64,000 bases of DNA from Lentisphaerota bacterium (GCA_016873675.1 VGWG01000006.1:1200-65199); one strand, 5' to 3'; numbered from the stretch's first letter, positions 8,915-49,434 are shown. Notes: a model not told the origin generated them from the letters alone. A program made the numbers and translations.

Positions 8915-10072
8915 ATGAACGCTCCGGCTTCCCGTTCCCCCGTCTTCACGGCGCTGCTGCTGGCGATTTTCGCGCTGCTGGTGTGGCGACTCGTTCACCG
9001 GCCGGGTGTAGAAGGTGTGCCCTCCGCCGTTCCGGTGCCAGGTCCGACCTCCGGACACCCCGCCGTTCCGGCGGTGGCCACGCCGCCACCGTTCGCGCCC
9101 ACCTCCGAGGAACGCACCGCCATCGCGATCTTCAGCCGCGTGTCGCCATCGGTCGTGGCGGTGGCCAACACGGGGCTCTTCCGCGCCGGGAGCTGGTTTC
9201 GGGGACTTCAGGTCTACGAGATTCCCCAGGGTGCCGGTTCCGGTTTTGTCTGGGACAAACAGGGGCACATCATCAGCAATTACCATGTCGTCCACCAAGC
9301 CAACGCGCTCACGGTGACCTTTCCCGACGGCGTGACATTCGATGCCCGGCTGGTGGGGATTGCGCCGGATCAGGATCTGGCCGTGCTGCGGATTGACGCC
9401 CCCCCCGAACGGCTGCACCCGGTTCGCGTCGCCGCGTCACGCGACCTGCAAGTGGGGCAGACGGTGCTGGCAATCGGCAACCCGTTCGGGCTGGACACCA
9501 CCCTCACCGTGGGAATCGTCAGTGCACTCGGACGGACCATCACGGCCATGACCGGCCGACGGATCAACGAGGTGATCCAGACGGATGCGGCGATCAACCC
9601 CGGCAATTCCGGCGGTCCCCTGCTCAATTCAGCGGGCGAGCTGATCGGCGTCACGACCGCCATCCTCAGCCCCAGCGGGGCCTATGCGGGGATCGGCTTC
9701 GCCGTGCCTGTCGACACCATCTCGCGCATCGTGCCCCAACTGATTGCCAAGGGACGCATCACCCGAGCGGGGCTCGGCCTCCAGCTTCTGCCCGATCACA
9801 TCATTCGCCGCGCTGGAGTTGCCGGCGCGGCCGTCTACGCCGTGCTTCCCCATTCCCCGGCCACCACCGCCGGAATCGCCGGCGTCTCGCAGTCTCCCCG
9901 CGGCCTGTTTCTCGGCGATGTGATCACCGCTGTCGATGGCAGGCCCGTCGCCGATGTGGAGGGCTACCACGCCATTTTCGACACCCTCCAGCCCGGCCAG
10001 ACCGTCGACGTGACCCTCACCCGCGACGGCCAGACACGCACCGTCTCCGTGCGCCTGATCGAATTGGAGTGA
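8915..10072 (+). CDS. Trypsin-like serine protease with a C-terminal PDZ domain (HtrA/DegP, S1C family)
   Basis: Signal/TM segment, then catalytic-triad context GSGFVWDKQGHIISNYHVV ... DLAVLRI ... NPGNSGGPLL, then a PDZ-like C-terminus. Confidence 0.85.
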   Translation: MNAPASRSPVFTALLLAIFALLVWRLVHRPGVEGVPSAVPVPGPTSGHPAVPAVATPPPFAPTSEERTAIAIFSRVSPSVVAVANTGLFRAGSWFRGLQVYEIPQGAGSGFVWDKQGHIISNYHVVHQANALTVTFPDGVTFDARLVGIAPDQDLAVLRIDAPPERLHPVRVAASRDLQVGQTVLAIGNPFGLDTTLTVGIVSALGRTITAMTGRRINEVIQTDAAINPGNSGGPLLNSAGELIGVTTAILSPSGAYAGIGFAVPVDTISRIVPQLIAKGRITRAGLGLQLLPDHIIRRAGVAGAAVYAVLPHSPATTAGIAGVSQSPRGLFLGDVITAVDGRPVADVEGYHAIFDTLQPGQTVDVTLTRDGQTRTVSVRLIELE

Positions 10073-35435: not shown

Positions 35436-36116
35436 ATGAGCTTGAACCTCGTGGAGCGGATCGATGACCGGGTGGCGCTGCGGTACGCGCTCGTCAGCGT
35501 TTCGGACAAGACCGGTCTGGACACGTTCATCCCGGCCTTGCTGCGCGCCGCGCCCGGCATCCGGCTCTATTCGACCGGCGGCACCTACACCGCGCTGCGC
35601 GCGCTGCTGGGTGCCCAGGCCGATGGCACGCTCACCCAGGTCTCCGATTACACCGGCCAGCCCGAAATGCAGGGCGGGCTGGTGAAGACGCTCGACTTCA
35701 AGATCTATCTCGGGCTCCTGAGCGAAACCTACAACCCCGCCCATCAGGCCGACCTGAGCCGGACCGGCGCGGTGGCCTTCGACCTGGTCGTGGTCAATCT
35801 CTACCCCTTCCGCCAGGCGGTCGCGCGGCCCGACGCCACCCCCGAATCCGCCCGGACCCACATTGACATCGGCGGGCCCTGCATGGTCCGGGCTTCCGCC
35901 AAGAACTACCTGCGTGTCGCCGCAGTGACCGATCCGGCCGACTATCCCGCCCTCGCCGCCGAGCTGGCCGCCCACGGCGGCACCCTCGGACTCGCCACCC
36001 GCGCCCGGCTGATGCGCAAGGCGTTCCGCCATACCGCCGACTACGACGCCGCCATCGCCGCGTTCTTCGCCGGCACCGATGACGGCGCCATACGGCGCGC
36101 CTATTCCCTGGCGTGA
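35436..36116 (+). CDS. Standalone MGS-like / IMP-cyclohydrolase-like domain protein (homolog of the PurH N-terminal domain only)
   Basis: Alignable to PurH residues ~1-200: VSVSDKTGL, VSDYTGQPEMQGGLVKTL, DLVVVNLYPF, IDIGGPCMVRASAKN and TADYDAAIA. The conserved KTLHPKIHGG is replaced by KTLDFKIYLG. No AICAR-transformylase domain follows. Confidence 0.65.
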   Translation: MSLNLVERIDDRVALRYALVSVSDKTGLDTFIPALLRAAPGIRLYSTGGTYTALRALLGAQADGTLTQVSDYTGQPEMQGGLVKTLDFKIYLGLLSETYNPAHQADLSRTGAVAFDLVVVNLYPFRQAVARPDATPESARTHIDIGGPCMVRASAKNYLRVAAVTDPADYPALAAELAAHGGTLGLATRARLMRKAFRHTADYDAAIAAFFAGTDDGAIRRAYSLA

Positions 36117-37616: not shown

Positions 37617-37651
37617 GTGACTTGCCGGGGCTGCGTGACTTGCCGGGGCTG
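37617..37651. repeat. Perfect 17-bp tandem duplication GTGACTTGCCGGGGCTG x2
   Basis: Seen directly in the sequence, just upstream of the left island repeat. Confidence 0.7.
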
Positions 37652-37703
37652 ATGTCGGCATCAGTCCAGCACACGCGCCTGCCCCAACGCGCCCCTCCCA
37701 CGC

Positions 37704-37830
37704 CTCGAGCCTCAGCCATCTACACACTCAACCTTTCCGCGTCCAGCGTGTTGCGCACTGACACAGTTTCTCTACTGGCACAGATTCTCAGTCCCCGCAT
37801 CCCCCCAGATTCTCTGTCCCCGCATCCCGC
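37704..37830. repeat. Left copy of an imperfect ~100-130 bp direct repeat bounding the Wadjet-containing segment
   Basis: Shares ...TCGAG.C.CAGCCATC..CACAC.CAACCTT.TC.CGCGTCCAGCGTGTTGCGCAC(T/C)GAC(A/T)CAGTTTCTCT ... with the copy at ~46028-46131. Both copies carry an internal tandem sub-repeat ending in GTCCCCGCAT. Confidence 0.75.
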
Positions 37831-37951: not shown

Positions 37952-38818
37952 ATGGGACGATTCATTATCGGCATCTACAACTACTGCGACTACTGGTGCG
38001 AACGCTGCGCCTTCACCCGCCGCTGCCGCAATTACAATGGCGGCTCCGCCGCCCGACGGCTGAAGGCGGCGGCGCGCGATGAGGATCGCGACGCGGTGAA
38101 CGCGTCGTTCTGGAACGATCTCGCCGAACGCCTGCGCGACGCGACGATCTTCGGCAGTATGGCGGACGACGCCGGATGCGAGGCGGACGACGCTGACGTC
38201 TGGGGCGACAGCGTTTGGGCCGACGAAGGTGGCGGCGCAGAGACCGACAGCCGGATCGACGCGGCAATGGATGCGAGGGATCGGGCGGTCAAAGCCCACC
38301 CCCTGACTCATCTGTCCCGTGACTACATGATGCGCGCGGGCCAATGGCTGAAGGACGCCGACGCCGACCTGAAGGGGCTGGCGGCGGAATGGCTGGCGCA
38401 GGCGGGCTCGCGCTACGACGACACCGATTACGAGGAGGCGGCCCACGAGGTCGGCGACCTGGTCGAGGTGGTCAACTGGTACCATACGCTCATTCCGCCC
38501 AAGCTGGCGCGCGCCCTCGGTAACCTGGCGGAGCCGGTTCTCGGCGACGGCGAATACGCGCGCATCATCCGCGAATCGCGCCTCTCCGACGCCAACGGCT
38601 CGGGGAAGGTCGCGCTGATCGCGGTCGAGCGTTCCATCGCCGCCTGGCTGCGGCTGCGCGAGCTCTTGCCGCGGCAGGAGGACGCGATTCTCGCCCTGCT
38701 GGTCCTGCTGGGACGCCTGCAGCGCGGCATCCGGACCGCCATCCCCGGCGCAGAAGCCTTCAAACGCCCCGGCTTCGACCCCGGTTCGACGTGCTTCGCG
38801 GATGACGAATCCAATTGA
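37952..38818 (+). CDS. Hypothetical acidic protein with an N-terminal Cys cluster (CDYWCERCAFTRRC), 288 aa
   Basis: GGAGG ribosome-binding site 8 nt upstream of ATG 37952. Lies inside the repeat-bounded segment, convergent with jetD. No recognised domain. Confidence 0.5.
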   Translation: MGRFIIGIYNYCDYWCERCAFTRRCRNYNGGSAARRLKAAARDEDRDAVNASFWNDLAERLRDATIFGSMADDAGCEADDADVWGDSVWADEGGGAETDSRIDAAMDARDRAVKAHPLTHLSRDYMMRAGQWLKDADADLKGLAAEWLAQAGSRYDDTDYEEAAHEVGDLVEVVNWYHTLIPPKLARALGNLAEPVLGDGEYARIIRESRLSDANGSGKVALIAVERSIAAWLRLRELLPRQEDAILALLVLLGRLQRGIRTAIPGAEAFKRPGFDPGSTCFADDESN

Positions 38819-39006: not shown

Positions 39007-40212
39007 TCACACGTCGAAAAACATCTCCATGGTCTGCTCCTGCTCCAACCAGCCATGGGCGAGGGTGTGGCGCAGGCGGTCCGCATACGGAAAATCGGGA
39101 TGGTTGTCGAGGAAGCGCTCGGCGCGTCGGCGCTGGGCGTCGTCAAGCGGCAGCCGCGCGCGCGCCAGCGTTTCCGCGTCCGGCGGCATGTAGAGGCGGG
39201 TCGGCAGTACGCGGGCGATCTGTTCGGCGATGCGCAGGCCGTCGAGGTCGCTATCGCCCCAGTGCACCGCCGTCACACCCTCTTGCGCGAACCGGCGTAA
39301 CAGCGTCCGCACGGCCGCGTTCGGGTACCCCTCGGTGTAGAGGCCGGGGCGCAGCCGCTCGACCAGCCGCAAATACGGCGCCGCGTTTTCGCTGGTGGTG
39401 AGGCATGGGCAGGGCGCCTCCAAACGCACGGCGGTCAGACCCCGCACCGCCTCGCACGAAAGCAGCGCCGCCTCGCCCCTGCTCCACAGGCAATGCGGCC
39501 AGTCGAGCCACTCGCCCGCCCGCGTGCGGTAGGAGAAGGGCGCGAAAACCACAACATGCGCCGTGTAGGGGTTCTCAATGACGCCGGCGGCGGCGAGGAG
39601 CGTCTCCGGCGGATCGTCCGGATTGCCCGCCTGCACCCGGATCAGGTGCTCCAACTGCTGACGTCGCGCGCCAGCGCGCAGGGCCTTGCTGTCGTTGAAA
39701 CAGGTCGCGCCCAGCTCGGAGAGGGTGATGCCGGTCGGTGCGGCGCGCAAGGCGGCGAGCGCGTCAAAGAGCCGGACCAGATCGTCCGATGCCGTGGGGC
39801 AGCTTCTGAAGAAACGGAGGATTGACTCGGAATCCCGCAGCGTGTCAATGCAAGCGCATGCATCCGGGTGTAGCAGCTTGAGCCGTTGCAGTGTGCGCAC
39901 CACAAGCGCGTCACTGGTGTTTGACGGCTTTGCCGCCTGGGCCGCCACGCCCAGCAGCTCAACCAGCGGCTGCCAGCGGACGGGGTTACGCAGGCCGTCC
40001 TCAAGCCGCGCTTTCAGGCGGCCCGCCTCCTCGCGGCAGCCGGGAAAGATCTCCTCCAGCGCGCGGCGCACCGCCTTCTCCTGCGGCACCTCGCCGAGGG
40101 TGAGCGTGGCGGGCAGCGCCTCACCGGCGGCCGCCCGCCTCACCGCGCGCAGCAGCCATGGCCTCAAACCGGGGCAGCGTTCCAGCCGATCTTGCCAAAA
40201 CTCCTTGGTCAT
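39007..40212 (-). CDS. jetD: Wadjet JetD-like protein (DUF2220-type, C-terminal Toprim domain)
   Basis: 401 aa. Toprim acidic motifs ITSENAAPY (conserved Glu) and HWGDSDLDGLRIAE (DxD). It is the last gene of a four-gene operon after the SMC-like ATPase. Confidence 0.75.
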   Translation of the reverse strand: MTKEFWQDRLERCPGLRPWLLRAVRRAAAGEALPATLTLGEVPQEKAVRRALEEIFPGCREEAGRLKARLEDGLRNPVRWQPLVELLGVAAQAAKPSNTSDALVVRTLQRLKLLHPDACACIDTLRDSESILRFFRSCPTASDDLVRLFDALAALRAAPTGITLSELGATCFNDSKALRAGARRQQLEHLIRVQAGNPDDPPETLLAAAGVIENPYTAHVVVFAPFSYRTRAGEWLDWPHCLWSRGEAALLSCEAVRGLTAVRLEAPCPCLTTSENAAPYLRLVERLRPGLYTEGYPNAAVRTLLRRFAQEGVTAVHWGDSDLDGLRIAEQIARVLPTRLYMPPDAETLARARLPLDDAQRRRAERFLDNHPDFPYADRLRHTLAHGWLEQEQTMEMFFDV

Positions 40213-40293
40213 CCAACACCCGTGGGTTCGTCCTCATCGTTCACTCTGCATCCAAACCGATCACGGATCGCCGATTACTGGCCATCTCCGCTC

Positions 40294-43200
40294 TCACAAC
40301 TCCTCGCCGAAGGCGACCGGTCGTGGCTCGTTCTGCGCCGGGTTGAGCAGGTCGAGCTGCCGCGGTCCGGCGCTCCAGTGATAGGGGTAGAGGTGGACAT
40401 TGTACTGGCTGTCCTTGACCACCAAAATCGAGGTGGAGAAGGGAATCTCCCGCTTGACGCCGTCCTGGTCGGGCGAAGCGACGAAGAGCTGGAGGTCGAG
40501 GTCGCTGGCGAAGCCGAGCAACTGGTCGCGCCGACCGGCGTCGATGCCGTAGAATGCCTCGTCAAAAATCAGCACGGGGAGGCGGATCTTCTCCTTGTCG
40601 AAGAGGAAGTGCGCGATGGTGAGGATCAGCAGGTAGTTGGGGACGGCCTGTTCGCCGCCCGAGCCGATGCTCTTGACCTTGCGGTCCATGACGATGCCGT
40701 CCAAATCGGTGGTCAGCACCTTCAGCTCGTAGCGGAACCAGTTGCGGTAATCGAGGATCGGCGGCACTTCGCCGACCTCGGCGCTCATGATCTCCGCGGC
40801 GTGATCTTCGATGAAGGCGCGCAGCTCGGGCTCGGTCTTCTCGGGGTCGAGCGCGCGGTAGCCGCTGACGAGATCGTAGAGGCGCTTGCACGACTCCTGC
40901 GGCGTGATCGAGAAGGCGTAGCGGTTGTTGCCGAACGACCGCTGCTTCAGCAGGTGTCCGATGCGGCGCGCCATCTCAGTGAGACGGCGCACGCTGGTCT
41001 GCAGTTCGCTCACCAGTTTGTCCATGACCAATTGGCGGAAGAGCTTGAGCGTCTGCTCGTTGATCAGCTCCTCCTGTTCGCGCAGCTCGTGGAGCGTGCC
41101 TTGCCGCACCTCCTCCAGTGTGCGGCCGCGGCGATCGGTGAGCGCGTTCCCCGGTTGGTCATAGACGAAGCCGAAGGCGATCCCTTCGGGCAGCACCACC
41201 TTGCCGCGGATTTGCTCGGCCGTCACGGCGGCGGTCTCGCTGGCCGCGGCGGCGCGCGCGGTGAGCGCGCTGCGGCTGTCGGCGTCGGCGCCGCAGCGCG
41301 CGCGCGCGAACGCGTCGAGCGGCCCGTCGGGCACCACCAGCGCGAGCAACCGCTCCTGGACGGCGTCGCGCTCGGCGCGCGTGGCGGCGAGGTCTCTCAG
41401 CTTCTCTTCGCAGAAGGTTTTCAACCCCTTCACCCGCTGGTCGACGCGTCCGCATTCGAGTATGTTTTCGCGATGATCCGCTTTGAGCCGCTGCCACTTG
41501 CGCTCCACCTCGCGGAGCCGTTCCTCGATGCCTTCGAGGCCCTCCTTCTTCAAGGCGACAAGGAGGTCGGCATGGAGGTCCTGCCGGGTCTGGAGTTCCT
41601 CCTCGCACGCCTGGCAGGTCTCGCGCGAGTTGATCGTGTCGCTCTGGGCCAGGGTCAGCCGGGTGACCCCCTGCAGCACCGCGTCGCGCTGACGCGGCAC
41701 GTCTTCGCCGATCTCGTTGAGCAGCGTCCGGAAGAGGGCCAGTTGGTCGCGGCGGCCGCTCAGATCGGCGTGCTGGGCCGCCGTCTCCTTGCGATCCTTT
41801 TCGCACGCGACGCGTTTCTTCTCCAGCTCCCGCACCTCGCGCTCAAGCTCGCGGCGGCGGACCTCCTCGCCGATCAGCCGCGGCGGCGTCTCGGCGAGCG
41901 CCTGTTCACGCAGACGGAAATGGAGGATGTCGCGGTCGAGGAACTTCTCGGTGTGCGGACCGTGCCTGGCGGCGAGCTGGTGCTGGAGCACGGTCAAGGC
42001 GGCGGGGTCAGAGGCGCGCAGGTCGAAGAAGCGCTTGAGCCACTCCGCGAATGCGGCGGGCAACGGCTCGGTGTCGTCGCCGACCACTGCCAGGCTCTGT
42101 TCGGGGAAGTCGCGGAAGAGGAGTCCTCGCAAGTCGGCGGCGCTGGCGGCATCGGTCACCCAGGTCGCCAGCACGGCGTCGCCGATAAGCTGTTCGAGGG
42201 CGGCGAGCTCGCGGGTCGATGTCCCGGCTGCGGGCACGAGCCCGGCGTAGAGCGGCTGGGCGCGCAGCAGCCCTTGCCGGATCGCCTGCCAGGCTTGTGC
42301 GAAGCCTTTGACGGCGGGGACGGCCTCGCCGCGGCTCCGCTTTTCGGCTATTTCGGCCACGAGTTCGGCGAGGCGCTTATCGAGCCGTTCGAGGGCCGCT
42401 TCCGCGGCCTGGAGCTGGCGGTCGAGTCCTTGCGCGGCGGCATCCGCGGCGGTGCGGGTGTCGGCCAGGGGCAGCATGGCGAGGTCGGCTTCGGGATCTT
42501 CATTTTTGGGCGCGTCCGCGAGCACGCCCGCGAGCTGCGCGGTGGGGAACGGCATGGCGCGGCCCAGTTTGTGCAGCGTGCGGCTGAACGCCTGCACCTG
42601 CTTGCGCAGGGCTTCGCGGAGACGGGTCACGGCCTCGGTCGCCTCGCTCTGCCGGGTTTGGCAGACGACCAGTCTCTTCAGGGCCTGGTTGTTGCGGAGC
42701 TTGGCCTCGTCCACCCTCAGGCGCGCCTCGCGCTCCTTGGAGACCAGCCCCTGCGCGTCCTGGCGCTGCAGCTCCTGGAGGCGCAGGCCGGTCGTCTCGA
42801 CGAGAGTGTCGAGGCGCTGCTGCTGTTCGCGCAGGTCGGCGAGGCGGCGCTCCTCGGCGAGGCGCTGCTCGTCGCAGCGGTCGTAGGCATCCTGAAACTC
42901 GCGGCCGGCGAGGTGGCGCTCCTGCCAGAGGCTGGCGGCATGGTCGATGCGGGCGTTGGCGACCTGCTCGCGAAGGACCGCGAGATCCTCGGCGAAGCGG
43001 TGCTTGGCGCGCAGCTTGTCGAGATCCTGCTTGCTCTCCTCCAGCGATTTCAGATTGGCGATGACCTCCTCAAAAACCTCGTGCGGCGGCTCCTGCAGCA
43101 GTTGGCGGAAGAGCTGGTGGTAGTCGCTGGTGTGCGAGGCGATCTCGCGGTAGGCCTTGCCCGTGGCCAGGAAGCGGCAGATGTCCTCGAACGTCTCAGC

Positions 43201-43758
43201 ATCGGAGAAGAATCGGCTGGCCATCTCGTCGGCATAGGCGCCGATCTGGCCGTAATAGCCGGTGCCGCCCAGGGCGGCCTTGAGCTCGGCCTTGGTGGAG
43301 GGGCGGCGGCGTTCCCCATCGTTCTGAACCAGGGGCAGCGTGTCGAGTGGACACTCCTTGATCGCGCCCCAGCGTTCGACGTCCTCGTCCATGCTGCGCG
43401 TGCTGACGCCGATGGCGGCGGTGACGGGCCGGCCGTTGCGCCCGGCGATCTCGACCGCGGCGTAGGTGGTGCCGCCGTTGGGGTTGAGCGGGCCGTTGGC
43501 CTCGATATTGTAGCGCATCACCACGCCCTGCATACGGCGGCCGCCTGCGTGCCTGGCACCCGCCACGCGCGCGGCGGAGTTGAACTCCATCGAGCGGCCG
43601 GCGGTGAGCACGTAGTGGACCGCGTCCAACACGGTGGTCTTGCCCGAGCCGTTGTCGCCGAGCATGAAGAGGTGGCCGCCCGAGGGGATGTCGATGGTCT
43701 CGTCCACGAAGTTGTGGAAGTTGACGAGACGGAGCTTGGTGATGCGGTAGAAGTCCAT
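40294..43758 (-). CDS. jetC: Wadjet JetC-like SMC/MukB-family ATPase (~1154 aa)
   Basis: N-terminal Walker A LGDNGSGKTT. Very long central coiled-coil region. C-terminal ABC signature SGGEQ and Walker B LPVLIFDEAF. Start taken at MDFYRITKLRL (43758), since the ORF-track extension would overlap jetB by 88 nt. Confidence 0.8.
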   Translation of the reverse strand: MDFYRITKLRLVNFHNFVDETIDIPSGGHLFMLGDNGSGKTTVLDAVHYVLTAGRSMEFNSAARVAGARHAGGRRMQGVVMRYNIEANGPLNPNGGTTYAAVEIAGRNGRPVTAAIGVSTRSMDEDVERWGAIKECPLDTLPLVQNDGERRRPSTKAELKAALGGTGYYGQIGAYADEMASRFFSDAETFEDICRFLATGKAYREIASHTSDYHQLFRQLLQEPPHEVFEEVIANLKSLEESKQDLDKLRAKHRFAEDLAVLREQVANARIDHAASLWQERHLAGREFQDAYDRCDEQRLAEERRLADLREQQQRLDTLVETTGLRLQELQRQDAQGLVSKEREARLRVDEAKLRNNQALKRLVVCQTRQSEATEAVTRLREALRKQVQAFSRTLHKLGRAMPFPTAQLAGVLADAPKNEDPEADLAMLPLADTRTAADAAAQGLDRQLQAAEAALERLDKRLAELVAEIAEKRSRGEAVPAVKGFAQAWQAIRQGLLRAQPLYAGLVPAAGTSTRELAALEQLIGDAVLATWVTDAASAADLRGLLFRDFPEQSLAVVGDDTEPLPAAFAEWLKRFFDLRASDPAALTVLQHQLAARHGPHTEKFLDRDILHFRLREQALAETPPRLIGEEVRRRELEREVRELEKKRVACEKDRKETAAQHADLSGRRDQLALFRTLLNEIGEDVPRQRDAVLQGVTRLTLAQSDTINSRETCQACEEELQTRQDLHADLLVALKKEGLEGIEERLREVERKWQRLKADHRENILECGRVDQRVKGLKTFCEEKLRDLAATRAERDAVQERLLALVVPDGPLDAFARARCGADADSRSALTARAAAASETAAVTAEQIRGKVVLPEGIAFGFVYDQPGNALTDRRGRTLEEVRQGTLHELREQEELINEQTLKLFRQLVMDKLVSELQTSVRRLTEMARRIGHLLKQRSFGNNRYAFSITPQESCKRLYDLVSGYRALDPEKTEPELRAFIEDHAAEIMSAEVGEVPPILDYRNWFRYELKVLTTDLDGIVMDRKVKSIGSGGEQAVPNYLLILTIAHFLFDKEKIRLPVLIFDEAFYGIDAGRRDQLLGFASDLDLQLFVASPDQDGVKREIPFSTSILVVKDSQYNVHLYPYHWSAGPRQLDLLNPAQNEPRPVAFGEEL

Positions 43759-43769
43759 GGCAAAGCGGC

Positions 43770-44420
43770 TCAGGGTGCGGGTGGCTGGGGTGCGGGCGTT
43801 TCGTCGAGCGGGCGCGAGATCCGCTGGACGCTGTAGTGCCAGAGCGCGGGCAGGCACTCGTAGATGGTATCGTCGGGCGCGACCTTCTCATCGTCCGGCG
43901 GATCGAGCTTCAGCAGGAAGCGGTACTTCTCGAGCTGCGGCATGACCGGGCGGAGGATCTTGCGAACGTCCTCCTCGGCGTAGCCGTCGGGTTGCTCCGG
44001 GAAGAGTTCGAGGAAGCGATCGCGCGTGAAGAGGAGCAGGTCGCCAAAGCGGAAGCGGATGTTGTCGGGTTCCTCGATGCTGGCCGACTCCTCCTCCAGC
44101 TTGTGTTCGAAGAATTCGAGCAGAAGCATGAAGGCCAGGCACTCGTCGCGCCTGGTGAAATTGAACAAGTCGCGGTTGCCGGGGGTGATCCGATCATTGT
44201 ACCAGGTCTCCTTGTAGAGCCGGGCGCATTTGGGATCGGCCACGAGTTGCCAGCCGAAGGACTCCTCGAAGAAGGAGGCGAACTCGCGCTGGTGGCGGCG
44301 CAGGAAGTGGTAGTGCTCCTCGTGGTCGCTCTTGTAGAAATAGGGGGCTTCAAGCAGGATGTTCAACACAGCCTGCACGCGGGGTTTCTGCTTTTGGAGA
44401 AGGTCGTCAAGGGCGCTCAT
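43770..44420 (-). CDS. jetB: Wadjet JetB-like protein (DUF4194-sized, 217 aa)
   Basis: Size and position between the JetA-like and JetC-like genes. ATGA start/stop overlap with jetA. The called sequence is acidic and helical (MSALDDLLQKQKPRVQAVLNILLE ...). The Arg-rich upstream ORF-track extension was rejected. Confidence 0.65.
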   Translation of the reverse strand: MSALDDLLQKQKPRVQAVLNILLEAPYFYKSDHEEHYHFLRRHQREFASFFEESFGWQLVADPKCARLYKETWYNDRITPGNRDLFNFTRRDECLAFMLLLEFFEHKLEEESASIEEPDNIRFRFGDLLLFTRDRFLELFPEQPDGYAEEDVRKILRPVMPQLEKYRFLLKLDPPDDEKVAPDDTIYECLPALWHYSVQRISRPLDETPAPQPPAP

Positions 44421-45937
44421 GGGTGTGGCGGGGGTTGGGGCGCGGCGGGACGCAGCCGCAGCCGTTGGTCGAGGAAGGCGAGAGTGTGGCGATCGGCTTC
44501 GACGCGCACGGGGGCGGCGGTGGATTCCAAGGCGAATCCGAGCTTGGCGAGGCGCGCGCCGTTGCCGAGCAGACCGTTGCGGGCGAGTTCCAGCAGGCGG
44601 GGAAAATCCTCGAACGCGACGAAGGCGCCCTGTGAGACGAGTCGGGTTGCGTCCGCCGCGGGGAGCAGGCCGCGCTGGGCCAGCCACGTCTTGAGAGCCT
44701 CCAAGCGGGCCTCTTCGAGCGACTGGACGGGCGCTTCTGCGGCACGGGGCTTGGCGTCGAGCCACTGCACCGTCTCGGCACGCACGCGGTGGCGCTCCCA
44801 GTGCGGCTGGGGCGGCAGGGCCTTTTCGTTTTCATCCCAGAAGTGCATGTCGCCGACCAGACGGGCTGGCGCGAGCAGGCGGCGCAGGAAGGCCGCGGGA
44901 ACGACCGTAGCGGGAAGCGCGGCCATTTCCGAGACGCGCGCGCGCAGGTCTTCGAGACGGTGGCTGCGGCGCTCGAGTTCGCGCAGGTGGGTGAAGAGCT
45001 TGCGCCAGACGTGGAGCGCGGCGGTGTTGACGCGGCCGCAGAGCCGCTCCAGCGTGCCATCGGCGGCGTAGAAGACGGACAGGCCGGCCAGCGCGTGCTC
45101 AGGGTGGGGCAGCCGCGTGCGCATGAGGTGCGCGCTGGCGCGGCTCTCCTCCTGCATGAGAGCGAGGCACGCCTGCCAGCGGGCCGTGAGGCGGCCCTGG
45201 CGCAGCTTGCTGATTTCGGGAGTAATCTCGGTGCGAAGGGTGTGGATGCGGTTGAGAAACCTCTTGAGGAAGCGATCCAGTTCAGTGAGGATCAGACGCG
45301 CCGTTGGCGCGTCGTAGCGGCTGGTGGCGAAACCGAGGAGGCGGACGTTGAAATCGCCGAGGGTACGGCTGACGTCGTCGGTGAGAGCGCCCATGCGCGC
45401 GAGCCTGTAGAAGACGCCGCGCGCGGTTTCATAGTCGAGCGACTCAACACCGGTCTTGTTAAAAAGCCGGACCGTCTCGCGCAGTGTGCCGATGAGTTCC
45501 GAGAGGAGGTCGCGGGTGTCGGTGTCGGCCGGTTCGAGGTCGTCATGGCGGCGCGCCTCCAGCCAGAGGAGGAAAGCGGCGGCCTCATCGGCGAGGCGGT
45601 AGCGGAACTTGCGGCGGCGGTTATCCTTGTAGCCGCGCAAACGTTCTTTCTCGAGACGGTCGGTGATCAGGTTCCAGATCAGCAGTTGGCGCAAGTCCTG
45701 GTTGAAGAGTTCCGCCGTGTAGGCTTCGCCGCCCAGGGCGGAACGGACTGCGGCGTGGAGATCCTCGTGCAGCGGCTCCAGTTCGTGTTCGCGACGGAAG
45801 GCGAGCATCGCGGCAAGGAGGGTCACATAGGGGACGGCGCGTTCTGACAGGAGCAGGTGTCCCACGTTCCGGTTGCGACGCTCCAGGAGCTGGGCGGCGG
45901 GGTCTTGTGGCGATTCGGTTGGCGCGTCAATGGGCAT
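44417..45937 (-). CDS. jetA: Wadjet JetA-like protein (DUF3375-sized kleisin-like subunit, 506 aa)
   Basis: First gene of the operon. Size and position fit JetA/MksF. No enzymatic motif is expected for this subunit. Confidence 0.65.
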   Translation of the reverse strand: MPIDAPTESPQDPAAQLLERRNRNVGHLLLSERAVPYVTLLAAMLAFRREHELEPLHEDLHAAVRSALGGEAYTAELFNQDLRQLLIWNLITDRLEKERLRGYKDNRRRKFRYRLADEAAAFLLWLEARRHDDLEPADTDTRDLLSELIGTLRETVRLFNKTGVESLDYETARGVFYRLARMGALTDDVSRTLGDFNVRLLGFATSRYDAPTARLILTELDRFLKRFLNRIHTLRTEITPEISKLRQGRLTARWQACLALMQEESRASAHLMRTRLPHPEHALAGLSVFYAADGTLERLCGRVNTAALHVWRKLFTHLRELERRSHRLEDLRARVSEMAALPATVVPAAFLRRLLAPARLVGDMHFWDENEKALPPQPHWERHRVRAETVQWLDAKPRAAEAPVQSLEEARLEALKTWLAQRGLLPAADATRLVSQGAFVAFEDFPRLLELARNGLLGNGARLAKLGFALESTAAPVRVEADRHTLAFLDQRLRLRPAAPQPPPHP

Positions 45938-46027
45938 GTGGCAGACGATAGCAAACCGCCGCGCGGAAAGACAGCGCGAATTCGTTAGACGGGCTCAGGG
46001 ACAGGAAATCCTTGTCTACTCCCACGC

Positions 46028-46131
46028 ATCGAGTCCCAGCCATCCGCACACGCAACCTTCTCGCGTCCAGCGTGTTGCGCACCGACTCAGTTTCTCTGTC
46101 CCCGCATTCTCCTGTCCCCGCATTCTCCCGC
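46028..46131. repeat. Right copy of the imperfect direct repeat bounding the Wadjet-containing segment
   Basis: See the left copy (37704-37830). Located between the jetA start and the vapC 3' end. Confidence 0.75.
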
Positions 46132-46139
46132 GTGCGGCA

Positions 46140-46550
46140 TCAGCGGCGCGGCTTGCCGCGACCGCTGGGTGCCCGGGGGCTGGGCCTCGTGTATTCGACG
46201 CCCGGCAGCCCGGCAAAGTGTCCGTCCTGCGTCCAGAGCGTGGCCCGTTCCGACCAGGCGGTCGACAGGATCAGACTGTCCGCCATGGGCAGACGGTGCT
46301 TGAGGCTGATGAGCGCCGCACGCAGCGCAATCGCTTCGGTGACTTCAATCACTCGGCCTTGTTTCATCTGTCCAATGGCCTGCAGGGCCTTCGCCTCGTC
46401 GGCGACCGCATTCACTTTCTTGAAGACCTCGTACAGGCAAATCACGGGAACAAGCAGTTCGTCCACGTTCTCGACCAGAGGCGCAAACACACCTGCATGG
46501 CTTCCATCGAACAGGAACTCGATCCAGCCTGACGTGTCGACAACGTTCAT
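46140..46550 (-). CDS. vapC: Type II toxin VapC (PIN-domain ribonuclease)
   Basis: PIN acidic residues in MNVVDTSGWIEF ..., ... LYEV ... and ... DSLILSTA ... TQDGHF. ATGA overlap with the upstream antitoxin gene. Confidence 0.85.
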   Translation of the reverse strand: MNVVDTSGWIEFLFDGSHAGVFAPLVENVDELLVPVICLYEVFKKVNAVADEAKALQAIGQMKQGRVIEVTEAIALRAALISLKHRLPMADSLILSTAWSERATLWTQDGHFAGLPGVEYTRPSPRAPSGRGKPRR

Positions 46551-46756
46551 GCCCGGTCCTCCTCATCACGCTCAAACCGGGCATCATACCCCTTGAGAAA
46601 GCCCCGCATGCTGCGCATGGGGCGGAGCGGGATCAGTTCAATGCGATCGTCGAAACAGATGACCTGCAGGCGTTCGCCCGCGCGGATGCGGGCCCGCTCC
46701 CTGACGGCAACCGGAATGACGACCTGATATTTCGGGGATACGGTTACCGTGTCCAT
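46547..46756 (-). CDS. vapB: Type II antitoxin VapB (AbrB/MazE/SpoVT-type swapped-hairpin DNA-binding)
   Basis: 69 aa. MDTVTVSPKYQVVIPVAVRERARIRAGERL is typical of SpoVT/AbrB-fold antitoxins. Immediately upstream of vapC. Confidence 0.75.
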   Translation of the reverse strand: MDTVTVSPKYQVVIPVAVRERARIRAGERLQVICFDDRIELIPLRPMRSMRGFLKGYDARFERDEEDRA

Positions 46757-47024: not shown

Positions 47025-47666
47025 TCAGGCGTTGACGACGAGGCAACCCGCCATCATGTCGTGCAGCCCCTGCTTGCGCTCGGTGATGCCGACCATGATG
47101 AAGCCGACAAACAGGGTCAGGACCGAAAGGATCTTGCCAAAGTGCCGGCCTGTGGCTTTGGCAAACGAAATGGGATTGCCGTCCACATCGGTGACCTTGA
47201 TCCCCAGCGCCATTTTACCGAGCGTGGCCTGTCGCGGCGAGCTTTCGAGCAAGGCCGAATAGAGCCACCCCATGACGACGCCAATCAGATTGCCGATGGC
47301 CTCCGCACCCTCGACAGATCCGGTCGCGGCCCCATACACCATCCCGAAGATGAACCCCACGACGAATCCGGCGACCATCAGGACGAAACCGTCAATGAGG
47401 CACGCCGCAAACCGTTTCCAGAATCCGGCGTACCCCGCGAACGCCGCGGCCACAGGCATCGCGATCGGAGGCGCGGGCGGCAGGTGTGAACCCGGCGGCA
47501 GAAGCCCCTCGACTGATGAGGCGCACATCCAATCCTTCATCGTTTCGGCCCAGACCAGAGTCTCCGGACGCAGCCGCTGGGACTGGAACAGTTGCTGGAG
47601 CGCACTTTCCGGAACGGGTCCCTCCTGACGGCCGTCAACCGCGTAGTACCACAGACGCTCACTCAT
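47025..47666 (-). CDS. RDD-family membrane protein with an N-terminal DUF4339/GYF-like domain
   Basis: RLWYYAVDGRQEGPV N-terminal motif. Multi-TM C-terminal half with RDD-family spacing. Confidence 0.7.
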   Translation of the reverse strand: MSERLWYYAVDGRQEGPVPESALQQLFQSQRLRPETLVWAETMKDWMCASSVEGLLPPGSHLPPAPPIAMPVAAAFAGYAGFWKRFAACLIDGFVLMVAGFVVGFIFGMVYGAATGSVEGAEAIGNLIGVVMGWLYSALLESSPRQATLGKMALGIKVTDVDGNPISFAKATGRHFGKILSVLTLFVGFIMVGITERKQGLHDMMAGCLVVNA

Positions 47667-47682
47667 CGGCATTGCTCCTTTC

Positions 47683-49434
47683 TTAGTCGGCGACCGGCAA
47701 CGGGCCGGCCAGCATCTCAAAGTCGGTGAGCGCGGAGGTTTCGCCCGAGCACACCTGTTCCTTAAGCATGCGTAACCGCGGCATCCGTTCCGCCAGCCAG
47801 CGCTTCGCGACCAGCAGCTTCTTGGGGCTGGCCGTGGCCTGGTCGCAGAAGAGCGCGGCCACGATCAGATCGACCGCCATGTCGACCAGCTTGCGGCCGT
47901 GGAGGTCGCGGTAGGCGTTGCTGGCCGTCTGCGCCTTGACGAACGCCACCGACTCGGCCAGCAGCGCCTGCCCCTCGCGGATATGGACCACCTGCGTCTC
48001 CAGCTCGTGCGGCCAGACGCGGTCGCCCAGGATATCCTGGATGACCTCGCCCACGGTGTCGCCGATGACGCCCGCCAGAGAGGCGACCACCTGGAGCTGG
48101 CTGGTGCCTTCGTAGATCGTGGTGATGCGGCTGTCGCGCAGGTGGCGCTCGACCGCGTAGTCCTTCATGTAGCCGCTGCCGCCGAGCACGGCCATCGAGC
48201 TGTTGGAGACGCGCATGGACATCTCGGACGAGAAGTACTTCGCCATCGGGGTCAGCATCTTGCTGAACGCCTTGTACTTGCGCTCCTCGGCGCGCAGACG
48301 CTTGAGCTCGTCGGGCGCGGCCTGCTGGGCCTCGGCGACGCAGACGCCCAGTCCCTCTTCCAGGTCCACGGAATAGGCCGCGTAGTAGCTCAGCGCGCGC
48401 GCCGCCTGCACATCGAGGCTCATGTCGAGGAGCAGGTCGCGCACCGCCGGGAAGTTCTCGATGGCGGTGTTGAACTGCTTGCGGCTGTGGGCGTAGGCGC
48501 GGGCGACGCGGTAGGCCGCCTCGCCAATGCCCAGGCTCTGCGCGGCGATGCCGATGCGCGCGCCGTTCATCAGGCTCATGACGTACGTGATCAGGCCGCG
48601 CCGGCGCTCGCCGATCAGCTTGGCCGGGGCGTCGTCAAAGCAGATCTCGCAGGTCGGGCTGCCGTTGATGCCGAGCTTGTGCTCCAGGCGGCGCACGCGC
48701 ACCCGCGGGCCGCGCTCGACCAGCAGGCAGGAGAGGCCGCGTCCGTCGGCGATCTCCGGCTCGGTGCGGGCCAGCACCAGCAGCACCTGGCCGCAGCCGT
48801 TGGTGATGAAGCGTTTCACGCCGCGGACCAGCCACTGCCCGGAGGCGTCCTGGTAGGCCTTGGTCTTCACCGCCTGCAGGTCGCTGCCGGCATCCGGCTC
48901 GGTCAGCACCATCGCGCCCGTCCATTCGCCGCTCGTCATGCGGGGGAGGTAGTCCCGCTTGATCTCCTCGCTCGCGAAGGCGTTGATGGTCTCGGCGATG
49001 CCCTGGAGCCCGTAAATGTTCATCAGCGCGGCGTCGGCCCGGCTGACGATGTCATTCGACATCGTGTAGAGCAGGTTCGGGCCGTTCAGCCCGCCGAAGC
49101 GGTAGGGCAGGATGAAACCCATCGCATCGGCCTGCCCGAGGAGCTTGACCGCCTCGGCGATTCCCGGCGCGTAGGTGACGCTGCCGTCGGCGTTCAGGAT
49201 GTTGCCGGCCGTGTCGGTGTCGGCGGCGGTCGGCGCCACGCGCTCGCCGGCGATCTCGCCGATGACCTCCAGAATGCGGCGGTAGTTATCGAGCGCCTCC
49301 GGCGCGTCGGCCGGCGCAAAGTCGAACTCCTTCGCAAAGCGGAAGTTCTGCTCCCGGAGAGCGGCCACGCGCGCCAGGTTCATGTGCTGGAAGAGGAACT
49401 GGATGTCCTCGTTGTCGGTGAAGAAATTCGCCAT
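47683..49434 (-). CDS. Acyl-CoA dehydrogenase family protein (long form, 583 aa)
   Basis: Acyl-CoA dehydrogenase middle and C-terminal signatures (GAMVLTEPDAGSDL, YEGTSQLQ). Start set at MANFFTDNED (49434). The 890-aa ORF-track call fuses out-of-frame sequence overlapping etfA and was rejected. Confidence 0.85.
   Translation of the reverse strand: MANFFTDNEDIQFLFQHMNLARVAALREQNFRFAKEFDFAPADAPEALDNYRRILEVIGEIAGERVAPTAADTDTAGNILNADGSVTYAPGIAEAVKLLGQADAMGFILPYRFGGLNGPNLLYTMSNDIVSRADAALMNIYGLQGIAETINAFASEEIKRDYLPRMTSGEWTGAMVLTEPDAGSDLQAVKTKAYQDASGQWLVRGVKRFITNGCGQVLLVLARTEPEIADGRGLSCLLVERGPRVRVRRLEHKLGINGSPTCEICFDDAPAKLIGERRRGLITYVMSLMNGARIGIAAQSLGIGEAAYRVARAYAHSRKQFNTAIENFPAVRDLLLDMSLDVQAARALSYYAAYSVDLEEGLGVCVAEAQQAAPDELKRLRAEERKYKAFSKMLTPMAKYFSSEMSMRVSNSSMAVLGGSGYMKDYAVERHLRDSRITTIYEGTSQLQVVASLAGVIGDTVGEVIQDILGDRVWPHELETQVVHIREGQALLAESVAFVKAQTASNAYRDLHGRKLVDMAVDLIVAALFCDQATASPKKLLVAKRWLAERMPRLRMLKEQVCSGETSALTDFEMLAGPLPVAD

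Follow-up and report, generated by a model that had tools for sequence, protein, structure and literature searches.

A four-gene operon on a 64,000-nucleotide stretch of Lentisphaerota bacterium DNA (GCA_016873675.1 VGWG01000006.1:1200-65199; hereafter the window) raises two questions: whether it encodes a Wadjet (JetABCD) system, as a first-pass annotation had proposed, and, if so, to which of the described Wadjet types it belongs. Our analysis makes it quite probable that the operon encodes a functional plasmid-restriction complex of the Wadjet family that represents a small, previously undescribed lineage. Open reading frame (ORF) calls revealed four intact, co-directional genes on the minus strand, in the order jetA-jetB-jetC-jetD: jetA (44417-45937; 506 aa), the gene for the kleisin subunit; jetB (43770-44420; 216 aa), for a single KITE subunit; jetC (40294-43758; 1154 aa), for an SMC-type ABC ATPase; and jetD (39007-40212; 401 aa), for a Toprim nuclease effector. 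The gene boundaries and sizes given by the first-pass annotation stood, except that JetB has 216 rather than 217 residues. The ATGA overlap that it had described, in which the jetA stop (TGA) runs into the jetB start (ATG), is also present and couples the two genes translationally. The jetC start is an ATG (MDFYRITKLRL) located 11 nt past the jetB stop, the mechanically called ORF extending upstream to a GTG at 43857, and 81 nt separate jetC from jetD. Since the GC content at third codon positions (GC3) is high in the three large genes (0.82-0.88, in a sequence of 65% GC overall), these genes appear to be coding. The window matches a protein, FJ222_01830, from a Lentisphaerae metagenome-assembled genome (MAG).

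We examined the putative motor and nuclease subunits using Pfam, profile-profile alignment, and alignments of relatives from other genomes. JetC scores above the Pfam thresholds for AAA_29, AAA_23, SbcC_Walker_B, and SMC_N. It contains a Walker A motif (GDNGSGKT, residue 34), an ABC signature (SGGEQ, residue 1033), and a Walker B motif (LIFDEAF, residue 1063), with a long coiled coil and hinge between the two halves of the head, and the residues of all three motifs are invariant in an alignment of 29 relatives. Comparison by hhalign with type I and type II JetC references gave probabilities above 99% for each. When a profile built from the clade of relatives was compared to the PDB, the sole significant match was JetC of the type II system of Neobacillus vireti (nvJetC; 9qe0_A, E=1e-21), with no type I JetC among the matches; PDB sequence searches with the single JetC sequence, or with the JetA, JetB, and JetD profiles, returned no solved Wadjet relative. 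As judged from sequence, JetC is an SMC/Rad50-type ABC ATPase, in agreement with the initial description of the third protein.

JetD passes the Pfam thresholds for both DUF2399 (29.9 bits; threshold 23.4) and JetD_C (26.9 bits; threshold 22). The motif GDSDLDG occurs at residue 319, and E275, H317, D320, and D322 do not vary across 28 aligned relatives. By hhalign, JetD matched the type I JetD of Cohnella with 98.9% probability over 251 columns and the type II JetD of Streptomyces with 95.9% probability. In type II, JetD combines an N-terminal DUF3323 with a C-terminal DUF2399 (TIGR02679); Pfam detected no DUF3323 match in the JetD encoded here, a weak one in a single relative, and no confident domain in the JetD N-terminal region. 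We conclude that JetD has the features expected of a Toprim nuclease with a catalytic glutamate and DxD motif (E275 and D320xD322), as had been proposed for the C-terminal part of the fourth protein. The motifs first read by eye in JetC and JetD are all present, although the first residue of the glutamate motif is T and not I (TTSENAAPY rather than ITSENAAPY).

The first-pass annotation had likened the first two proteins, by size, to JetA (DUF3375) and JetB (DUF4194); in Pfam, the first has no DUF3375 match and the second matches DUF4194 only below threshold. The only Pfam match of JetA is to DUF2397, at 24.4 bits (threshold 28.5; a canonical member reaches 431 bits). No match of JetA to PF18982 or DUF3375 was detected in Pfam at E<=0.01, nor to JetA1 in PADLOC, while type I references score 189-374 bits on PF18982. 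JetB best matched DUF2398 (49 bits), with the alignment confined to profile positions 2-83 of 363; its matches to DUF4194 (29.5 bits; threshold 32.7) and MksE (22 bits; threshold 27) were below threshold. Among the JetB proteins of the clade, all 29 examined matched DUF2398, and 21 of the 29 also matched DUF4194 at E<=0.01. Most JetA proteins of the clade bear a precomputed PF09660 match, and NCBI names some of these "DUF2397 family protein" and labels some relatives "DUF2398 family protein". Thus, the clade proteins are already known as sequences.

Structure prediction provided a second view of these subunits. The AlphaFold2 (AF2) model of JetA (mean predicted local distance difference test score, pLDDT, 75.5) consists of an N-terminal winged helix, a long helical bundle, a disordered linker (residues 358-403), and a C-terminal winged helix. 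Foldseek comparison revealed that the best match was nvJetA of type II (9qe0_E, E=6e-9), followed by several MukF chains, with only a weak match to the type I ecJetA (E=0.045). The AF2 model of JetB (pLDDT 84.9; predicted TM-score, pTM, 0.73) contains two winged-helix domains. It matched the tandem KITE nvJetB (9qe0_D, 5.5e-6), ecJetB (2.6e-4), paJetB (5e-4), and MukE (3e-3), and aligned with one lobe-sized part of the 384-residue tandem nvJetB. The models therefore predict that JetA adopts the fold of a MukF/JetA-type kleisin and that JetB folds as a single KITE with two winged helices.

We asked which lobe of a tandem KITE JetB resembles. In profile-profile alignment with a tandem JetB profile from Streptomyces, neither lobe gave a significant match; this profile was of low diversity, as the homolog search yielded only Streptomyces sequences with >=77% identity. 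Of the PADLOC JetB2 models, three aligned the first winged helix of JetB with lobe 1 and one aligned it with lobe 2. The first winged helix was also the only part aligned in an hhalign comparison with the Cohnella JetB (94% probability).

Since a kleisin, a KITE, an SMC, and a Toprim nuclease are encoded together, the operon has the composition of a Wadjet, and we assign it to the Wadjet (JetABCD) family. The proposal that this is a complete Wadjet-like operon is thus upheld by the four intact genes, the hidden Markov model matches, the predicted folds, and the invariant catalytic residues.

We determined how the operon relates to described Wadjet types by scoring the four proteins on curated models. 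On TIGR02677-TIGR02680, JetA, JetB, JetC, and JetD scored 26, 34.5, 42.6, and 41 bits, respectively; JetA is compared with TIGR02677 (cut-off 166), JetD with TIGR02679 (cut-off 196), and the JetB and JetC cut-offs are 125 and 463. The best PADLOC scores were 27 bits for JetA (JetA2, over a span of only 63 residues), 46 bits for JetB (JetB2), 173 bits for JetC (JetC1), and 58 bits for JetD (JetD1). As positive controls, we used a type II operon from a Streptomyces plasmid (L085) and a type I operon from a Cohnella herbarum plasmid (L086). On their own PADLOC models, the four control proteins scored 561, 599, 1317, and 425 bits for type II and 691, 284, 1183, and 416 bits for type I, and both operons scored 76-431 bits on their own Pfam families. 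PADLOC also holds type III models; no model labelled type III was among the matches of JetA, JetB, or JetD.

Profiles built from the clade gave a similar picture. The JetC profile scored 88 bits on the type II reference and 86 bits on the type I reference, while the JetD profile scored 38 and 75 bits, respectively. The JetB profile detected only the type I reference JetB (33 bits), and the JetA profile detected neither reference JetA. Because the scores are split across the type I and type II references, the affinities of the clade are mixed and all distant. Judged by its scores against reference operons of types I and II, the operon fits no described type, and the lineage appears about equally distant from both. 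The first-pass annotation had noted that, should the first two subunits match no known family well, the operon would be a variant system; the weak matches of JetA and JetB bear this out.

We next consider whether the operon could be a divergent type II system whose short JetB and JetC are secondary reductions, with one KITE lobe lost and the coiled coil trimmed. The operon resembles type II, represented by nvJET-II of N. vireti (PDB 9QE0/9QE1), in several respects: the four-gene jetABCD order is the same, the best Pfam and fold matches of JetA and JetB are to type II families and N. vireti subunits, nvJetC is the only significant solved relative of JetC, and JetD is above the DUF2399 threshold. 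That JetB exceeds the DUF2398 threshold, that every clade JetB examined matches this family, and that most clade JetAs carry PF09660 and in part the DUF2397 name, also favors such an origin. However, type II has been defined by three structural hallmarks (Roisne-Hamelin, Liu, Gruber; bioRxiv 10.1101/2025.03.10.642339): its KITE is a tandem protein of 388 aa containing four winged helices, its coiled coil is lengthened by an elbow-distal extension, and its hinge is MukB-like and lacks a channel. We checked the first two, and both the tandem KITE and the enlarged SMC were absent from all 77 genome loci of the clade and from three distant relatives. In contrast to the tandem KITE of type II (388-491 aa, four winged helices), the JetB encoded here has 216 aa and two winged helices, and clade JetBs range from 208 to 268 aa (68 loci), compared to 450-522 aa among the 120 canonical TIGR02678 proteins listed. 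Similarly, JetC has 1154 aa, compared to 1371-1387 aa in type II, a difference of ~100 residues per coiled-coil arm. In a global profile alignment, the arms of the type II reference JetC are longer by ~90-110 residues (N-terminal) and ~120 residues (C-terminal), while the type I reference is collinear with JetC to within ~25 residues.

Other evidence also argues against descent from type II by reduction. All four proteins fall far below the TIGR02677-TIGR02680 cut-offs, by 3- to 10-fold, and the JetD and JetB profiles score higher on the type I than on the type II reference. Finally, a HMMER search of 1.84 billion representative proteins with the clade JetA profile returned 213 matches at E<=1e-3, of which 101 were at E<=1e-30. 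With so few matches, the search did not recover canonical type II JetAs in large numbers, and the family stands apart in sequence space. When we scanned ten of the more distant full-length JetA matches (~70-195 bits on the clade profile), all of them matched DUF2397, at 31-82 bits. On three contigs that carry such distant relatives, JetA is followed by a KITE of single size (242, 254, or 267 aa), and the only complete jetC encodes 1161 aa. Together, these data make a secondarily reduced type II system an unlikely explanation, and we favor a separate lineage within the Wadjet family.

We also compared the operon to type I, using the JetABCD systems of E. coli GF4-3 and P. aeruginosa PA14 as comparators and the Cohnella herbarum operon (L086) as the reference. 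As in type I, the KITE is single (~200-240 aa), JetC is ~1100-1150 aa and collinear, and JetD is above the JetD_C threshold. In addition, the clade JetD and JetB profiles score best on the Cohnella reference, and the best PADLOC models for JetC and JetD are labelled type I. Unlike type I, JetA lacks PF18982, DUF3375, and JetA1 matches and has only a weak fold match to ecJetA, JetB is below the DUF4194 threshold, a true member scores 5- to 25-fold higher on the PADLOC models, and the clade profile recovered no type I JetC from the PDB. Thus, the sequences of the clamp subunits look type II-like (DUF2397/DUF2398), while the build of the system is type I-like (unfused KITE, JetC of ~1150 aa). A kleisin and KITE that resemble type II families thus occur together with a KITE that is not fused, with short arms, and with a similar distance to both types, a combination for which we found no earlier description; the literature that we searched mentions no fourth Wadjet type, and no Wadjet in Kiritimatiellota.

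To what extent is the operon conserved? A scan of 185,579 species genomes, one genome per species, detected relatives in 144, with a patchy distribution that crosses phyla. The hosts include Kiritimatiellia (among them Pontiella sulfatireligans), Lentisphaerae/Victivallales, MAGs labelled Verrucomicrobia, Fibrobacterota/Chitinispirillaceae, Desulfobulbia, and Myxococcia. In 77 genome loci, the median lengths were 504 aa for JetA, 222.5 aa for JetB, 1154 aa for JetC, and 408 aa for JetD, and 40 of these loci contained complete operons. The contexts vary. The Pontiella locus is flanked by a HEPN/nucleotidyltransferase pair, a group II intron reverse transcriptase, and an integrase-like gene, while a locus on an ENA contig is flanked by housekeeping genes. 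Clade members were not found on viral contigs, and a JetC protein search of the plasmids in PLSDB gave distant matches only.

These results bear on whether the operon is a housekeeping condensin resembling MksBEF, or an inactive remnant. MukBEF and MksBEF likewise combine an SMC, a kleisin, and a KITE, and MukF and MukE rank second or third among the fold matches of JetA and JetB. The neighbors of the operon are also those of a housekeeping region, consisting of triosephosphate isomerase, a short PurH-like gene, fumarase, acyl-CoA dehydrogenase, and electron transfer flavoprotein (ETF) genes; its GC content is like that of its flanks, and it is present in all contigs of the same population. 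However, a housekeeping MksBEF operon has three genes and no nuclease, whereas here a Toprim nuclease gene is present that is full-length and retains an invariant catalytic triad, and JetB does not reach the MksE threshold. None of the four ORFs is disrupted and GC3 is high in the three large ones, which argues against a remnant. Conserved synteny, which the first-pass annotation had named as a mark of a housekeeping MksBEF, was not observed: the flanks differ in the two relatives' loci that we examined (Pontiella and the ENA contig), which argues against a syntenic housekeeping condensin, as does the patchy, cross-phylum spread. We therefore regard a housekeeping or inactive operon as extremely improbable.

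Some of our observations weigh against the interpretation that the operon is an accessory Wadjet system of a new lineage. The link between JetA and kleisins consists of a sub-threshold Pfam match and an AF2 model of medium confidence (pTM 0.43; whole-chain TM-scores ~0.3). Within the window, no mobile-element genes adjoin the operon. Further, we found no variant with an empty site, as every contig with an identical fumarase gene also carries the island. Since neither adjoining mobile genes nor an empty site was detected, the accessory status of the operon rests on comparison between genomes.

Several relatives differ in gene arrangement. In a sub-clade from rumen and gut MAGs of Kiritimatiellae and Lentisphaerae (L071, L074, L076, L078, L079, and L082-L084), the operon is circularly permuted to jetB-jetC-jetD-jetA, an order found in 7 of the 40 complete operons; in L071 (4517-11575), adjacent genes overlap by a few bases. 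We also considered five proteins of 952-972 aa (P0388, P0390, P0393, P0395, and P0399), in which JetA forms the C-terminal half, as candidate JetD-JetA fusions. The JetD profile did not match their N-terminal halves, which are of low complexity and look like extensions in the wrong frame that arise in gene calling at high GC, and we rejected these candidates as artefacts. A separate observation concerns a type I jetC on a conjugative plasmid of Vibrio nigripulchritudo (L087, 3091-7813), which is split by an IS3-family transposase. Such a plasmid-borne Wadjet would be inactivated.

By homology with characterized systems, we infer how the complex might work. The JetA kleisin would close the JetC dimer into a ring and bind JetB, forming a motor unit, with JetB presumably a homodimer of the single two-winged-helix KITE, as in type I and MukBEF. 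Two motor units would pair through the N-terminal winged helix and helical bundle of JetA. Such a complex would load on DNA and scan it by ATP-driven loop extrusion; on a small circle, extrusion would run to completion and the motors would stall. Stalling would recruit the JetD Toprim dimer, which would cut the plasmid. In this scheme, the subunit stoichiometry, the extrusion of loops, the specificity for circular DNA, and the activity against plasmids are all carried over from relatives. In type I, an N-terminal motif of JetB (described in 10.1101/2023.11.03.565488) and the JetC larynx dock the aCAP domain of JetD.

As the arms, the KITE, and the N-terminal domain of JetD differ from those of described systems, the same SMC-nuclease chassis could instead serve another target or trigger, with a different DNA size limit, ion requirement, or substrate class. 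Pfam assigns no confident domain to the N-terminal region of JetD, and the aCAP folds are reported to be type-specific, with the type II system of N. vireti requiring Mn2+ (bioRxiv 10.1101/2025.03.10.642339), so that the effector interface varies between lineages. However, types I and II both sense circular DNA despite large structural differences, and the catalytic and architectural core elements are all conserved here. A change of target is thus quite improbable, and plasmid restriction remains the function that we predict.

A more speculative idea concerns the origin of the lineage. In the only type II structure, the tandem KITE was proposed to derive from duplication and fusion, and "most or all" systems of the family were described to have enlarged KITE and SMC genes (bioRxiv 10.1101/2025.03.10.642339). 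The clade could, as one tentative possibility, be a surviving unfused sister lineage of type II, in which the single KITE predates the duplication and fusion and the short JetC predates the lengthening of the arms, making it an intermediate between type I-like systems and type II. With the same caution, and separately, we consider that a repeat of ~130 nt near the operon (described below) may mark sites at which defence cassettes are exchanged.

A Wadjet operon is in itself ordinary. The clade is directly relevant to the proposal that the tandem KITE of type II arose by duplication and fusion, and it can serve as a comparison for the roles of KITE fusion and arm length in loop extrusion and plasmid sensing; in this sense, Wadjet systems are natural experiments in SMC motor design. 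With this clade, the range of Wadjet widens to Kiritimatiellota, Lentisphaerota, Fibrobacterota, and Desulfobulbia, and takes in cultured Pontiella strains. Since the matches to curated defence models are weak and partial, defence finders may miss these operons or call them only in part, leading to an undercount of Wadjet in these phyla.

We characterized the direct repeats that had been reported to bound the segment containing the operon. Two copies of a 79-nt repeat with 87% identity were confirmed at 37695-37773 and 46019-46097, and none of 100 shuffles gave two matches to the 21-nt core that they have in common. The element as a whole is longer. In the left copy (37642-37825, plus strand), a short palindrome that forms a hairpin (CTGATG-TCGG-CATCAG) lies close to the 5′ end, and there are two TCTC[AT]GTCCCCGCAT sub-repeats. 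The right copy (46018-46129, plus strand) lies between vapC and jetA, ~80 nt upstream of the jetA start. Together, the copies bracket an orphan gene, orf288, and jetDCBA. The repeat had no Rfam match, scans of the repeats and intergenic regions for promoters and terminators yielded nothing informative, and no integrase was recognized beside the repeat in the window.

A metagenome scan with the 21-mer detected true extended copies in only two contigs, L089 (10009-10139 and 12258-12367) and L093 (1725-1865); the repeat was absent from 87 other loci that we compared. One copy in L089, a contig of 57% GC, is 94.7% identical over 132 nt to the left copy in the window, and blastn revealed nothing else in common between the two sequences. 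The two L089 copies are in the same orientation and bracket an orphan ORF of 383 aa, and the copy with 94.7% identity precedes a BREX type 4-like operon by ~280 nt (BrxP 771 bits; BrxC 1833 bits). Based on two contigs, this dispersed non-coding element of ~130 nt may be a boundary or recombination site of defence cassettes.

Within the repeat-bounded segment, orf288 (37952-38818, plus strand; 288 aa) is convergent with jetD. The protein has an N-terminal cysteine cluster (YCDYWCERCAFTRRC) and could be placed in no family of Pfam or PADLOC. Related Wadjet loci lack the gene, which occurs at the same position in contigs of the same population (L099-L101), placing it outside the conserved system.

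Just outside the segment is vapBC (46140-46756, minus strand), in which a PIN-domain gene (46140-46550; 55 bits) and a gene for a MazE/AbrB-type antitoxin (46547-46756; MazE_antitoxin, 31 bits) overlap by 4 nt. The toxin-antitoxin pair noted in the first-pass annotation is therefore real, but the defence-island context that had been read from it is thin, since the surroundings are housekeeping genes and only vapBC and two orphan ORFs are nearby. In the Streptomyces plasmid (L085), the canonical type II operon is also directly followed by a PIN/VapB pair, at 9396-10057. Adjacency of Wadjet and PIN/VapB genes may be a recurring association or a coincidence.

Two further genes in the window deserve mention. 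Beside vapBC, a membrane protein with GYF_2 and RDD domains (47025-47720, minus strand) weakly matches the C-terminal part of the PADLOC candidate PD-T4-6 (E=8e-11), a match that probably reflects only the common RDD domain. On the other side of the operon, the PurH-like ORF (35436-36116, plus strand; 226 aa) has an MGS-like domain and only the first ~62 profile positions of AICARFT/IMPCHase. The ORF resembles a short or split purH, and its length is the same in contigs L099-L101.

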